A DNA stretch of 59,127 nucleotides, counting the filler, from Basidioascus undulatus (Eukaryota), in the NCBI GenBank assembly GCA_000826855.1. It is 6 parts of 6 records of this genome, joined end to end, with 100 filler letters (N's around TTAATTAATTAA, not from the genome) between each part and the next. Parts side by side here need not be neighbours in the genome. Positions count along the whole stretch, not along the records: positions 1 to 26,926 come from JTLS01000176.1; 5 more parts are not named here. One strand, given 5' to 3'. Position numbers and translations under genes: made by a program. The notes under the pieces were generated by a model, which saw nothing but the letters and a program-made list of their open reading frames with translations, was not told where the DNA came from and did no database searches. Positions 2,678 to 28,361 of this stretch are shown here, in pieces (within the stretch, counting starts at the first letter, position 1; the number at the start of each line of letters is the position of its first letter).

Positions 2678-3604
2678 ATGACTGGCACTCCTTACTCAGC
2701 CTCCTCTCCACAACAACTCTCCTTATAGCTCTCATTCAAACATGTGAAACTTTGGAGATGTGTTGGGGAGATCATGCTAATTTGGGCTTGAGGGAACAGA
2801 AGCTCCTGAAGAAGGTCCACTACAAGAAGCCAGAGGGGCACAAGAAGAAGGTTCATGTCAGGATTTTCAATGGAGCATGATGATAGTGTCTGATGGTACA
2901 ACAGCCTGATTTAGGAGGTGAAGAAGAAGGAGTACAAGAAGAAGGTGAGCACTGCGGTGGCGGCAGTCAATGCTGTTAGCAGCCTGACTGAGTCTGGGTT
3001 GTGACCAGGAGGAGAAGAAGCCTGAGGAAAAGAAAGAGGAGAAGAAGGACAACGTGAAGAAGGACAATGACAACAATAAAGATGATGATAAGAAGAAGGA
3101 TGATGAGAAAAAGGTGCAGTTGCTGCAGCATTCAACCTGGAGTTTGGGCCGTCACTGACCCAAGGCATTTTCACAGAATGTGGACAAGAAGAAGGACAAC
3201 AAGAAGGATGGTAACAACAAGAAGAAGGACAATGACAAAAAGAAGGATGATGATGAGGAAGACATGAGAAGAAGAAGGCTGATAAGAAGGCTGACAAGAA
3301 GGAGGATGAGAAGAAGAAAGAGGTTCACAAGAAGAAGGACAACAATAAGACGGTACAGTTGATGCTGTGTCCAACCTGAGGTTTGGCCTGGTGCTGACCC
3401 AGCTGGACCATAGGACGAGGACAAAAAGAAGGATGAGAAGAAGAACAAGAAGAAGGATGAGAAAAAGGATGAGAAAAAGAAGGAGGTTGACAAGAAGGAT
3501 GAGAAGAAGAATGATGGCAACAGCGGTCGTAACGGCAACCAGCTATGTGAGTAGCCACCAGTCTCAGTGCTTACAGCCAGCATGAGTGCTCACACTCAGC
3601 CTGA
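2678..3604 (+). pseudogene. Multi-exon Lys/Asp/Glu-rich low-complexity gene, CpG-eroded, with one frameshift; start uncertain
   Basis: Canonical introns at 2851-2914, 2945-3008, 3114-3176, 3353-3413 and 3547-3599 (GT...CTGAY/CTCAC...AG) join K/D/E/N-rich exons in frame (e.g. EEKKPEEKKEEKKDNVKKDNDNNKDDDKKKDDEKK). Exon 3177-3352 is 1 nt short of a multiple of 3. Confidence 0.65.
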
Positions 3605-19992: not shown

Positions 19993-21339
19993 ATGGTCTG
20001 TCTCCTCGTAGATGGACTGCCATTCAATTTTATGGCTGACATCGATACCCCCGGTCCAAACAGGCGCGTAACGAGGAGAAGGCGCAGTCGATGCTCTTCC
20101 GCTTCCGCGAAGCGCAAGCGGCCGAGCTCGGTCTATCGACGCGGCAGACGCGCCGGCCGCGCATGGCGAGCTCGTGCAACAACCTGCGTGACGCTGAGAA
20201 GTGGCGCGGCGAGATCCTACGCGATATCAGCAGGAAGGTGTCGAAGATCCAGGACGGTCCGTATTCGCACTTGAGCCCGGGTTAGGCGAGGGAGAGAGGG
20301 CGAAGATGCTGACGCGGGACTGAGGGCGGTGATGCAGCTGGCTTGACCGACTATGAGGTCCGAGACCTGAACGACGAGATCAACAAGCTGCTGCGCGAGA
20401 AAGGCCACTGGGAGCGCCAGATCGTCGCCCTGGGTGGGGCGAACTATCGAAGGAGCGTGGCAATGACGGATGAGGACGGGAAGGAAGTGCCGGGCACGCG
20501 GGGATACAAGTGCGTATCTGCGTCCCACTTTCATATTCTGGAACTTTAGTGCTCATGGGAGACCCGGAGTGATGCAGGTACTTTGGGCGGGCGAAGGATC
20601 TGCCAGGCGTGAAGGAGCTGTTCCAGCGGAGCAGTACGTCATGCCGGTTTTGCGGTGTTAGTTTCGTCCACTTACATTTGACGGTGGTACGCAGAGGACG
20701 AGAAGGACGAGGCGTCGAAGCCGGAAAAGTACCGCCCCTTCATGCACCAGGGCCCGGCGTACTACGGCGACCTGGACGAGGACGATGGGCAGCTGTTGGA
20801 TTATGAGGCAGCGGAGGAGGAAGAGGGTGAGTTGGAGGCCGTCTCATCTTAGTATGACTGTTTGCGATAGCTTCTGACGTGGAGGTTGCCCAGGCTGGAA
20901 CGCTGCGTTCGAGCGTATTCGTACAGTCCTCTCTCTCCCCAAAGATGCCACGCCGCCCGCCATCCCCCGCACCCGCCCCGAGCCGCTCTCCAAAGCGCTC
21001 GCAGCGCTCCAACAAGTCGCCGTCGCGCAGACAGAGCCATCCGCGTCGGCAGCGACCAAGCGACCTGCGCCGAAGGATGAGGCGGAGCCCGATGCGGAGG
21101 GCGGTGCGGCGGAAGACGGCGCGGAGGAGGACGGTGCAGGGAAGCGCGCGAAGGCGGACGAGGTCGCGCCTGAGGCGCTCAAGGCGCGCGAGGCGGCGGC
21201 GCGCAAGGCCGCGACGGCGAGCTTGAGCTTCTTGGATGCGGCGGATCTGGAGGCGCCCAAGATGCCGAGCAAGGAGGAGATGGAGAAGGTGCTGTTGGAC
21301 ATTCGGAAGAAGGCGTTGCTGGCGGAGTACGGCGCATGA
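19993..21339 (+). CDS. ISY1: Pre-mRNA splicing factor Isy1
   Basis: ATG-only first coding exon, then ARNEEKAQSMLFRFREAQAAELG...AEKWRGEILRDISRKVSKIQD|AGLTDYEVRDLNDEINKLLREKGHWE...GYK|YFGRAKDLPGVKELF. Ends LLAEYGA*. Confidence 0.95.
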
Positions 21340-24337: not shown

Positions 24338-25657
24338 ATGCTCCATCGTCCGACACTTCGAGCAGTCCTCCCCCTCGCCCGGCGCACAATGTCCTCCTCA
24401 TCCTCGCCCTCCAAACCCACGCTGGCCTCCCCCCAGCTCATCCCCATCCCCGCTTCGTCCGTCTCCTTCCCGCCCTCGGCGGGCACCCCCCAAATTTACG
24501 ACCCCACAATCTCCCACGCGCTCGACACCGCCTCTCGCCTCCTCGCCTCCGACGAGCTCGTCGCGTTCCCCACAGAGACAGTCTACGGCCTCGGCGCGTC
24601 CGCACTCTCACCCTCGGCGGTCAAGAGGATCTTCGACGCCAAGGGCCGGCCGCAGGACAACCCGCTCATCGTGCACGTCTCCTCGCGCGCGATGCTCGAC
24701 TGGCTCCTCCCCGAGGGCTGGGTCGTGCCGGAGATCTACGAGCGTCTCATGGCCCGCTTCTGGCCCGGCCCGCTCACGCTCCTCTTCCCCACGTCCTCCA
24801 AGATCCCGCCCGAGACAACCGCCGGCCAGCCGACCGTCGCGGTCCGACTGCCCGCGCACCCCGTCGCGCGCGCGCTCATCGCCCACTCCGGCATCCCCCT
24901 CGCTGCGCCCAGTGCGAATTCCAGCGGGCGCCCGAGCCCCACTGCTGCACGGCATGTATGGGACGACCTGGCGGCCAAGGGGCGCGTGCCGCTCGTGCTG
25001 GACGGCGGGGAGTGCGGGGTCGGCGTGGAGAGCACTGTGGTTGACGGGCTCGGCGCGGACGGGAAGCTGCGCGTCCTCCGCCCGGGGGGGGTGACGGTTG
25101 AGATGCTGCAGGAGTGCTTGGGCGGGGGGGGGGAGGACGTCTTGGTCTGGCAGAGGGACTACCAGGACGAGAAGCAGCGGGAGGCGCCGAGCACACCGGG
25201 GATGAAGTACAAGCATTATTCGCCCGACACGCGCGTCCTCCTCCTCCTCCCCGCTCACGCCCGCCGCTACTCCTATTCCTCCTCCTCCGACCTACCCACC
25301 CCCCTCTCCGCGATCCTCTCCTCGCTACCCGCCGCCCCGGCCCCGCACCGCATCGGCCTAATGACGCTCCCCTCCTCCCCCCTCACACTCTCGCTCTTCC
25401 CCACGTCCTACCCAACCGCCCCGCACACGCTCCACACACCGTCGGGGCACACGCTCACGCTCGTCCCCTTCCCGCTCGGCGAGGTCGACCGTCCGGACGT
25501 CACCGCCCAGCGAATCTTTGCCGGGCTGCACCAGCTCGACAAAGCGCGTGTGGAGCTCATCGTCGTTGAGGGCGTCAGGGAGGAGAGGGAGGGGCTCGCG
25601 GTTATGAACCGGCTGAGGAAGGCTGCGGGCGTTGGGGGGGTGTGGGAGGTGCAGTAG
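24338..25657 (+). CDS. SUA5: Threonylcarbamoyl-AMP synthase (YrdC domain plus SUA5 domain)
   Basis: VAFPTETVYGLGA, AKGRPQDNPLIVHV, FWPGPLTLL, PLAAPSANSSGRPSPTAARHV, GVESTVVDG, PGMKYKHYSP, AVMNRLRKAA. Confidence 0.97.
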   Translation: MLHRPTLRAVLPLARRTMSSSSSPSKPTLASPQLIPIPASSVSFPPSAGTPQIYDPTISHALDTASRLLASDELVAFPTETVYGLGASALSPSAVKRIFDAKGRPQDNPLIVHVSSRAMLDWLLPEGWVVPEIYERLMARFWPGPLTLLFPTSSKIPPETTAGQPTVAVRLPAHPVARALIAHSGIPLAAPSANSSGRPSPTAARHVWDDLAAKGRVPLVLDGGECGVGVESTVVDGLGADGKLRVLRPGGVTVEMLQECLGGGGEDVLVWQRDYQDEKQREAPSTPGMKYKHYSPDTRVLLLLPAHARRYSYSSSSDLPTPLSAILSSLPAAPAPHRIGLMTLPSSPLTLSLFPTSYPTAPHTLHTPSGHTLTLVPFPLGEVDRPDVTAQRIFAGLHQLDKARVELIVVEGVREEREGLAVMNRLRKAAGVGGVWEVQ

Positions 25658-26152: not shown

Positions 26153-26901
26153 ATGCGCTTCTCTGCCCGACACGCTCTTCCTGCCCTCTCACTCTCCCTC
26201 TCCCTCGCCACCCTCACTCTCGCCGCACCAATACCAATACCAGTGCCTGTCCGAGTGCCGGCCGAGTCTGTCTAGCTCTCTCCTCTCAATCATAATTCTA
26301 CAACTAACACCCGCCCCACCTCCCCATCCCTTCCCTCCGCACAGCTTCGCTCCGTACCCTCCGTACCCCGCACCTCTCTTCTTCTCCACCGCCTCCTCTT
26401 CGGGCGTAAACTCCTACGGCCGCGGGAGTGCGCGGCAGGCAGTCATCTCGTGCGTGCCTCTCAGGTGCGGTTGCCCGCGTGGTGGGTGCAAGGCTGATTG
26501 AATGGGGAGGTGGGCGGTAGTGAAGCTGGGATCGATTTAGAGATTGTTGGGAGGCTGTTTGAGGGTCACTTTGGTGAAGGGCCCGAGGGGGATTTTGAGG
26601 ATGCCGAGTGCGTTTGACGTCATTGACTCGCTGGATACGAAAGGTCCTCATCTGGAACGGAACGGAAGCAGAGTCGGAATCGACCTCGACCTGCTCCAGC
26701 ACCTCGTCGTGCGGCACTTTACGCTCTGCTTCGACCTGATGCTCTGCAACGCGTTCCCTTTCTTCCCTTTCTCCCTGTCGTCAGTCTCAGTCTGACGCCC
26801 GCTTCCAACGACAGCGTCGGGCTCGTCTTCGACGCGCACCTTTTCTATCACGTCGTGAACGGGCGGTTCTTCCCGGACGGGGGCGGGGCGTTTGTGGATG
26901 C
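26153..26901 (+). CDS. Small secreted protein with exon-encoded ~28-aa repeats; truncated by contig end
   Basis: Signal-peptide-like MRFSARHALPALSLSLSLATLTLA. Exons 26153-26265, 26345-26449, 26521-26607, 26672-26752 and 26815-26901 are all joined in phase 2, with branch points CTAAC/CTGAT/CTGAC in three of the four introns. The spliced frame has no stop. Confidence 0.7.
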
Positions 26902-26926
26902 GCAAGTCCCTCCCCCCCCCCCCCCC

Positions 26927-27026: not shown

Positions 27027-27223
27027 TTGGGGCCCTCCGGGTGTCGCTCGTGCGGAGCGTGCACACGCGCGTAGGCGTATGGGAGGCAGATGGAGCGAAG
27101 AGTTCGACAGGTGCGCTATAATGCGAGAACAGAAGTGCACAGGTCTCCTATACTAAGAGGCTGGTGCTCTTGTTGCTTCAGCCTTCAGGCGATATGATGT
27201 GGCTTGTGAAAAGCGCAACCACC

Positions 27224-27319
27224 GGCCTGATGGTCTAGTCGTATGATTTTCCCTTCGGGTGCTAGCCCATGTAGTTGCATATTTGGGAGAGGTCCCGGGT
27301 TCAATTCCCGGTCAGGCCC
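27224..27319 (+). tRNA. tRNA-Pro(CGG), intron-containing
   Basis: Acceptor stem GGCCTGA/TCAGGCC, A-box TGGTCTAGT, anticodon arm TTCCC-TT-CGG-G[~24-nt intron]T-GGGAG, T-arm CCGGGTTCAATTCCCGG, downstream oligo-T Pol III terminator. Confidence 0.92.
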
Positions 27320-28361
27320 TTCTTTTTTGCCAAATCCCTACAAGCTCGACAGCGAGCGGTCGAGGATGCCGAAGAGGCCCCCCGAGCCAGTGTGTCTTTT
27401 TGGCAACCACCCTTCATCACCTGTGTTTGCCAGAGTTTATACCGCTTCCTGGCCGATTCCATATAAATATGATATTCTATCGACTGGACGGGGACAATCT
27501 TCTCAGTTATAGTGGACCGCCGGTAGACAACCTGCTGTGCCTGCTGCGCTGCAGACGCACGCACATCCAATCAGAGCTTGCAACTTCATCGTTACTGCGC
27601 TGATCAACTCGCTCGGAGTCCTTTCAGATATGTCTTATTCGAAGATGACTGATCAATCTAGTAAGACGTGAAGGCTGACAACATCCGCACTCTCGGGAAC
27701 GCCGGAACTACGTCACAGTTGAAAGCTGGTCGCTGCATCACAGAACAAGGCAGAGGGTGCAGCGTACTCAGCATTCATCCATCAGCAGTACCAAGCACTA
27801 TGTTTTAGGTAGGATGATGTTATTTGTGTTGTGGTCAGCTCAGACACTCGTCGGTCTCTGGCCGTCCCACAGGCGACGGCCGGAAGGCGCCCGTGTATAA
27901 TGACTTCATTAGTTGAATCAACGCCATGCAAAAAAAAAGACGATTTCAGAGTACAACGTTTCATAAGGTGTTTGAGGCTCTGAGACAGCATAGGCTGCTA
28001 CAGCTTAGAAATGCACCGGGGCAAGAGGGAACGAAGCACCTTGGGTTCAAGCGTGCACGAACAGTGTCGTTGTTCGCACCTGGGCTCGACCCAAGTAGAC
28101 CACAACTTACACGGTTTCAACGTTAATCATACTTTTCGGAATGTTCTTTCTTCTCAGGTTCACGAACGATAAGTCATTTAGCGAGTTGCATGCAATCGTT
28201 CCTTCTGCACTGACGACACCGTTTTCGAGCAGCCAGCCGATCGAGCAGTCTTGAACTAGAGCGGAACGTGAACATGAGGGTATACGCAATATGCAGCTCA
28301 AATTACAGATGGAAGGCAGATTGGAAAGCCAAGATAATCCATGCAATCGGAAAGACGTCCA

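Follow-up and report, generated by a model that had tools for sequence, protein, structure and literature searches.

The gene that runs off the 3′ end of the first contig in our window (the whole stretch of 59,127 nucleotides from Basidioascus undulatus that was analysed) probably encodes a folded, single-chain secreted repeat protein of an orphan basidiomycete family, a reading to which we assign a probability of about 0.6. A folded domain is favoured over a surface coat or a peptide precursor because the number and order of the repeats are fixed, conservation is position-specific and structural caps are present. By orphan we mean the lack of an equally diverged relative in any distant annotated fungus, and nothing wider, since the lineage is unsampled and intron-rich genes are poorly represented in the collections.

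The contig concerned (C845 of assembly G000; 32.1 Mb in 2992 contigs) ends in poly-C at window position 26926. An earlier note on this DNA had described a gene at 26153..26901, cut by the contig end, with a signal peptide, an X-Pro string and exons bounded by phase-2 introns. Exon limits and phases are as it gave them, the modules translate as quoted, the X-Pro string is present and four dipeptides long, and the remainder of the gene was found on contig C102 of the same assembly. Three public runs were compared with the locus. X1 and X2 are genome-sized and identical to the window there, a 50.7-kb contig of X2 extending about 15 kb beyond the poly-C. X3, from the same sample as X2 and filed as 'DNA?', holds 15.7 Mb in 36,764 records; from its spliced joints, exon-only cover and size, we infer that it is a transcriptome. 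The features are as follows.

24338..25657, plus strand: SUA5 (threonylcarbamoyl-AMP synthase), intronless, Pfam PF01300 and PF03481; an unrelated upstream housekeeping gene
26153..26265, plus strand: exon 1, 113 nt, with the start codon, predicted signal peptide, X-Pro run and first part of a Pro-rich linker; covered by X3 record 5
26153-26224, plus strand: predicted signal peptide, residues 1-24, from hydropathy
26225-26248, plus strand: four X-Pro dipeptides in exon 1, from translation
26266..26344, plus strand: intron 1, 79 nt, phase 2, GTCTGT...CAG; X3 joint; absent from the paralogs read
26345..26449, plus strand: exon 2, 105 nt, a non-repeat linker or pro-region rich in Pro, Tyr, Ser and Gly; X3 joints
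26450..26520, plus strand: intron 2, 71 nt, phase 2, GTGCGT...TAG; X3 joint
26521..26607, plus strand: exon 3, 87 nt, repeat R1, from translation and X3
26608..26671, plus strand: intron 3, 64 nt, phase 2, GTGCGT...CAG; in X3 record 6, 15 letters of the end of exon 3 stand before 26672
26672..26752, plus strand: exon 4, 81 nt, repeat R2, with a Cys pair either side of the predicted turn
26753..26814, plus strand: intron 4, 62 nt, phase 2, weak donor GTTCCC; retained in the sole transcript-like contig over it
26815..26901, plus strand: exon 5, 87 nt, repeat R3, from translation and X3
26902..26926, plus strand: 5′ part of intron 5, GC donor GCAAGT, then poly-C to the contig end
C102 30523-30434, minus strand: exon 6, 90 nt, repeat R4; exon 5-exon 6 junction supported by transcript
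C102 30361-30281, minus strand: exon 7, 81 nt, repeat R5, from consensus splice signals and paralog conservation
C102 30206-30117, minus strand: exon 8, 90 nt (75 nt with an alternative in-phase donor), repeat R6, from consensus signals and paralogs
C102 30054-29968, minus strand: exon 9, 87 nt, repeat R7, from consensus splice signals and paralog conservation
C102 29898-29838, minus strand: exon 10, half repeat R8 and stop, from consensus splice signals and paralog conservation

The complete gene thus has 10 exons, 9 phase-2 introns and 882 coding nucleotides for 293 residues, with 7.5 repeats of about 29 residues, one per exon. All ten exons are open and in phase, the donors after exons 6-9 on C102 are GTACGC, GTGCGT, GTATGT and GTACGT, and the GC content at the three codon positions of the repeats is 0.69, 0.37 and 0.76. 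Simple arithmetic puts the chance of eight consecutive symmetric internal exons at about 1 in 6,500 at equal phase use, a figure to be qualified by the fact that the splice sites of exons 6-10 were chosen partly by frame. The predicted signal peptide, already listed in the earlier note, reaches a hydropathy of at least 1.5 in 11 of the 12 eleven-residue segments starting at residues 8-19, and the leaders of six paralogs resemble it. A GPI signal at the C-terminus was rejected, the tail being a half repeat that is charged in the window copy, and no RNA family was found at the locus. In exon 8 (L002 1124-1213) and in the R6 exons of paralogs, a second candidate in-phase donor lies 12-15 bases upstream of the main one.

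In X3, 26265 is joined to 26345 and 26449 to 26521, both joints being GT..AG; a gene on the minus strand was rejected because these joints fall on the plus strand. The limits of record 5 coincide with the ATG on one side and with the exon 3 border on the other. Record 6 leaves the window after 26901, and its loose end has a single match in the assembly, which lies on the minus strand of C102, at the contig end, and follows immediately on a branch site and a CAG acceptor. From this departure into sequence behind an acceptor we conclude that the GC donor of intron 5, read as such in the earlier note, is used. Junction mapping therefore confirms the splicing of introns 1, 2, 3 and 5. Between 26672 and 26901 record 6 runs gapless at depth 11, so that intron 4 is retained in this contig.

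The similarity of the repeats is well above that of shuffled controls. For the three repeat exons in the window (exons 3-5) the summed pairwise BLOSUM62 score is 82, against 50.3 ± 6.2 for shuffled sequences, and none of 5000 shuffles reaches it; for all seven full repeats it is 532 against 336 ± 16, again with 0 of 5000. The modules singled out in the earlier note thus pass the comparison that it proposed. Taken singly, the pair of exons 3 and 4 is significant (0 of 1000 shuffles), with p values of 0.12 for exons 3 and 5 and 0.105 for exons 4 and 5. The window repeats are 21-28% identical to the first row of the alignment, and no column is invariant over the seven repeats. At the DNA level the repeat exons are 42-62% identical (21 pairs), which indicates that the unit duplications are old. 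Exon 2 was considered as an eighth repeat and rejected, its spliced frame having no significant score and no frame matching the profile.

We found no relative of the repeat in the collections searched. The window exons match 0 Pfam families in either reading direction, a PPR_1 hit (E 0.07; 1 among 36 repeats) being taken as chance, and 0 PDB sequences at E ≤ 10; the search of PDB structures used only a 30-residue single-repeat model. With the repeat profile, HMMER returned 8 hits at E ≤ 0.001 from 1.84 billion representatives: the five inspected are unrelated simple tandem repeats, and the other three are proteins of 1459-3733 residues matched over 10-17 positions. As a control, the same profile scores L016, the intact copy described below, at 74 bits (E 4e-16). 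Word-indexed searches gave no relative among 8000 candidates and none among 31, and the ESM Atlas gave no usable match to two read-through queries with low recognition scores. In the JGI metagenomes one of 138 candidates passed (L043 1334-5104), a lone match in an intronless ORF of at least 1257 residues with 37% GC and no other repeat, which we attribute to chance. A keyword search of the literature, which as such is unable to show absence from print, did not bring up this family; the catalogues of KEPs (Kex2-processed repeat proteins) that accompany PMC7329392 and PMC6339444 might be relevant to this negative.

The SUA5 protein encoded upstream allows these blanks to be put in proportion. 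The 120 best relatives in the database share 48-55% identity with it, those with a name being Agaricomycetes, which indicates a basidiomycete without a close relative in the protein collection and limits what a blank homology search can mean. The profile search for relatives proposed in the earlier note gave no match to a well-characterised family in Pfam, PDB or the 1.84 billion proteins, in a lineage that is barely sampled. Elsewhere in the window we observed an NMD3 family gene on the next contig (28727-30027, minus strand; PF04981), a weak Isy1-like match at 20878-21339, and a Lys/Asp-rich low-complexity coding stretch at about 2800-3550 on the plus strand, with two similar intron-like units between charged runs. 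At 27218-27320, also on the next contig, a stretch resembles, by eye, an intron-containing tRNA-Pro gene, for which ARAGORN and Rfam (at the gathering score) report nothing.

Searches with single exons located 13 further loci on 11 contigs of the same genome, giving a family of at least 14, a lower bound in which some fragments at contig ends may be halves of one gene. In all readable paralogs the set and order of the repeats and the intron positions are unchanged, and the copies that reach that far also have the terminal half repeat. Introns 1 and 2 are particular to the window gene; in the paralogs read, exon 1 holds leader, pro-region and R1. The window gene is the divergent member, 44% identical over 192 codons to L016, an intact copy on contig C2673, and yet all eight of its repeat-bearing exons score best against the repeat at the same position of L016, exon 3 tying between R1 and R7. 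The array was thus fixed before the family expanded, and growth was by whole-gene duplication. Ongoing diversification by exon duplication, which the earlier note had proposed, is therefore not supported: no copy has an added or reordered repeat. The note is supported in so far as it described a real repeat protein, confined to its lineage and probably secreted, with repeats derived from duplicated exon-intron units.

Most of the family is broken. Among the nine loci that lie well enough inside contigs to be judged, only L016 (272 residues, no stop) is intact, and eight carry lesions: in-frame stops in the paralogs on C61, C1682, C2438 and C2483, an inversion of R7-R8 in the C2812 copy, and lost start codons or splice sites. 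Some indels in homopolymers may be assembly errors, and some frameshift assignments are alignment artefacts (R3 of C2673a, for example, is clean on direct reading), but stops, inversion, lost starts and lost splice sites are not of that kind. The ratio dN/dS is about 0.45 between the window gene and L016, a rough value with dS (1.18) near saturation, and lies between 0.12 and 0.57 in all 10 pairs tested. These data suggest a mostly decayed, orphan family of secreted repeat proteins, with a putative function, that has evolved by birth and death.

Three arrangements were seen among the copies. The last two repeat exons of L018 (C2812, 3695-3911, plus strand) are inverted and lie on the opposite strand to the remainder of the gene. 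L041 (C1682, 2923-3126) and L017 (C61, 4000-4203) are 97.5% identical over 204 bases and have a common in-frame stop in the pro-region, so that either an already broken copy underwent a further duplication or one copy is represented twice in the assembly. On each of two contigs, C2673 (L015 and L016) and C593 (L039), family members lie in pairs on one strand, 5-7 kb from each other, which suggests local tandem duplication.

Over 36 repeats of the family, conservation is concentrated at positions of structural meaning. Gly is found in the first turn in 28 of 36, followed by a hydrophobic pair; an Asp, Ser or Asn N-cap in 30 of 36; the Gly of an Asn-Gly C-cap in 24 of 36; and the Gly of a hairpin Asp-Gly turn, which is preceded by an aromatic strand, in 26 of 31, with the second strand ending in Asp or Asn in 31 of 36. 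The helix is hydrophobic at positions 7, 9, 10, 11, 13 and 14 (six of eight) and has one narrow polar stripe; the mean Eisenberg hydrophobicity of the helix segments is 0.46 and their mean moment 0.30. AlphaFold2, run on the 36-row alignment, predicts a helix at 7-17 and strands at 18-20 and 26-28 (mean pLDDT 82; pTM 0.33), a model of a single repeat that is silent on packing between repeats. R2 and R5 retain a Cys pair either side of the turn, and both intact copies have an odd number of Cys residues (5 in the window gene, 7 in L016), which suggests that disulfide pairing is not cleanly conserved. The window protein is net acidic (35 Asp and Glu against 16 Lys and Arg).

We therefore propose a fold in which, once the signal peptide is removed and a poorly conserved pro-region of 20-47 residues possibly trimmed, the chain would form one domain. 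Each repeat would contribute a short strand, an N-capped helix of 10 residues closed by Asn-Gly, and a β-hairpin. This hairpin would be joined by the opening strand of the following exon in a three-stranded meander, the intron falling in a turn, so that the structural unit would cross the exon border; a second hairpin would arise there from the last strand of the repeat, the turn that bears the intron and the residues with which the following exon starts. Eight largely hydrophobic helices would pack on one another and on seven meanders, with the half repeat supplying the last helix. The same-position orthology of repeat exons between copies only 44% identical is evidence for such a fold. To judge from secretion and family turnover, the most likely role would be that of an acidic extracellular protein that binds or coats, whether at the spore surface, at the cell wall or where the fungus meets other microbes. 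The layout of one repeat per exon would be a relic of the ancient duplication of one exon-intron unit, and the family would now be renewed by whole-gene birth and death, the window copy perhaps being partly mis-spliced at its weak intron 4 donor.

The case for a full-length product of the window copy is weakened by the retention of intron 4 in the only transcript contig over it, which brings in a stop after 142 residues. The donor, GTTCCC, has neither the purine at +3 nor the G at +5 nor the T at +6, whereas the same intron has G at +5 in 9 of 9 paralog donors. Together with eight broken paralogs of the nine judgeable and the loss from the window copy of Cys residues that most others retain in R5-R7, this could mean that the window copy is an early-stage pseudogene, its intron mostly retained and its transcript degraded or yielding a two-repeat stub. 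Ten open, in-phase exons with good splice signals and dN/dS values below 1 speak against it, and assembled contigs lose minor variants, so that a spliced form could exist in this single sample. We hold this possibility to be tentative and on balance doubtful; it is compatible with the proposed fold for the family, whose function would then rest with the intact C2673 copy. Regulated splicing would offer another account, in which skipping of symmetric exons or retention of intron 4 varies the number of repeats. Every internal exon is symmetric, record 5 stops at the exon 3 border like a fork in an assembly graph, and exon 8 has two in-phase donors, as has R6 in paralogs. No exon-skipping joint is, however, among the 2 X3 joints listed, the fixed identity of each repeat suggests that each has its own place, and symmetry follows automatically from unit duplication; we consider this account very improbable.

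The alternatives to a folded domain concern the chain itself. The earlier note favoured a precursor of repeat peptides, which would be cut by a protease other than Kex2, with a Ste13-type enzyme trimming the X-Pro run. A signal peptide followed by four X-Pro dipeptides, similar modules ending in Asp/Asn-x, and a Lys/Glu-Arg site before R1 in two paralogs would suit it. The note was right that no KR or RR site separates the repeats: the 293-residue window protein has 0 dibasic sites and the 272-residue L016 has 1, ahead of R1, so that neither intact copy has one between repeats. In the six paralog N-termini read, the X-Pro run is missing or at most 1-2 dipeptides long, which argues against Ste13 processing as a design feature. 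In PMC6339444 the Ste13 signature (XA or XP) is described as coming after a Kex2 site, whereas the window protein has a single X-Pro run after its signal peptide. A signal peptide, tandem repeats and X-Pro dipeptides are shared with KEPs (PMC7329392 and PMC6339444), but the window protein differs in having no KR, RR or KK between its repeats and no near-identical cores. Its locus neighbours are SUA5 and ORFs without Pfam match. For the DUF3328/UstYa gene that would lie near a ustiloxin-type RiPP precursor, PF11807 has no match in the assembly, but the control gave no match anywhere either. With low repeat identity, conserved helix caps, turns and core hydrophobic residues, a half-repeat end and a repeat number constant across copies, we find it hard to credit a peptide precursor.

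The repellent-like role also raised in the note stands somewhat better, as an unprocessed, surface-active or self-assembling coat whose hydrophobic helices would either cover air-water, lipid or spore surfaces or stack from molecule to molecule, so that it works in the manner of repellents or hydrophobins without belonging to them. For helices so hydrophobic, a place at a membrane or air-water interface would be just as conceivable, and the signal peptide and acidic charge suit a coat, as does a repeat length near that of Hum3 (31-36 residues) and Rep1 (34-55 residues) of Ustilago maydis (PMC4617103). They too are secreted by a basidiomycete and built from imperfect repeats, theirs being amphipathic and of about 30-55 residues. 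Repellents of the Rep1 type are cut by Kex2 into peptides and assemble on hyphae into surface-active, amyloid-like fibrils; the window protein is set apart from them by its lack of Kex2 sites. Its helices are hydrophobic on most faces, with a narrow polar stripe. Rep1 did not come up in the profile search or the word-indexed searches. On the other side, a closed fold would account for the position-specific conservation and for the capped half repeat, and so strong a decay would be unexpected for an essential coat. Moreover, the genome has 12 class I hydrophobin matches above the Pfam cut-off (contigs C2333, C1579, C543, C2786, C1163, C1509, C720, C1107 and C625), which weakens the repellent part of the idea; the intact protein may still have a surface-active role. 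As a whole we regard a coat as quite unlikely.

Class I hydrophobins carry an eight-Cys pattern. The window family resembles them in being secreted, hydrophobic, Cys-bearing and basidiomycete, but has no such pattern (5 Cys in 293 residues), and no PF01185 match was found in 36 repeat exons scanned singly. Descent from hydrophobins was rejected, since six hydrophobin loci of this genome score no higher than 3.0 bits with the repeat profile.

Some solenoid genes, for example intron-rich LRR genes, likewise devote one symmetric exon to each repeat. The window gene shares with them a structural repeat of 25-30 residues per same-phase exon, introns at the homologous position of each repeat, and an origin by duplication of an exon-intron unit. 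It differs in that its repeat is neither an LRR nor any Pfam repeat, is predicted to be a helix and hairpin, is fixed at 7.5 copies and belongs to a decaying multigene family. Genes of the one-repeat-per-exon type and secreted repeat proteins specific to a lineage are both already known, so that the layout alone is no surprise. The repeat itself is new, in that no library that was searched gave a match to it, and it could represent a small repeat fold of a new kind; this possibility is the main interest of the finding, which opens no long-standing question and in which function is proposed on indirect grounds. An ampler picture, which we think unlikely in full, would join a new fold (a 29-residue unit of helix and three-stranded meander, with an eight-helix core wrapped by seven small sheets) to a rapidly discarded arsenal of secreted binding proteins in an unsampled basidiomycete lineage and to an intron 4 donor that acts as a switch, giving either the 7.5-repeat protein or a form that has two repeats and a novel hydrophobic tail. 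For the family, the copies would record two time scales, an ancient one in which an exon-intron unit was duplicated until the array stood fixed at 7.5 repeats, and a later one of birth and death of whole genes, with one copy possibly caught in the act of losing a splice site.
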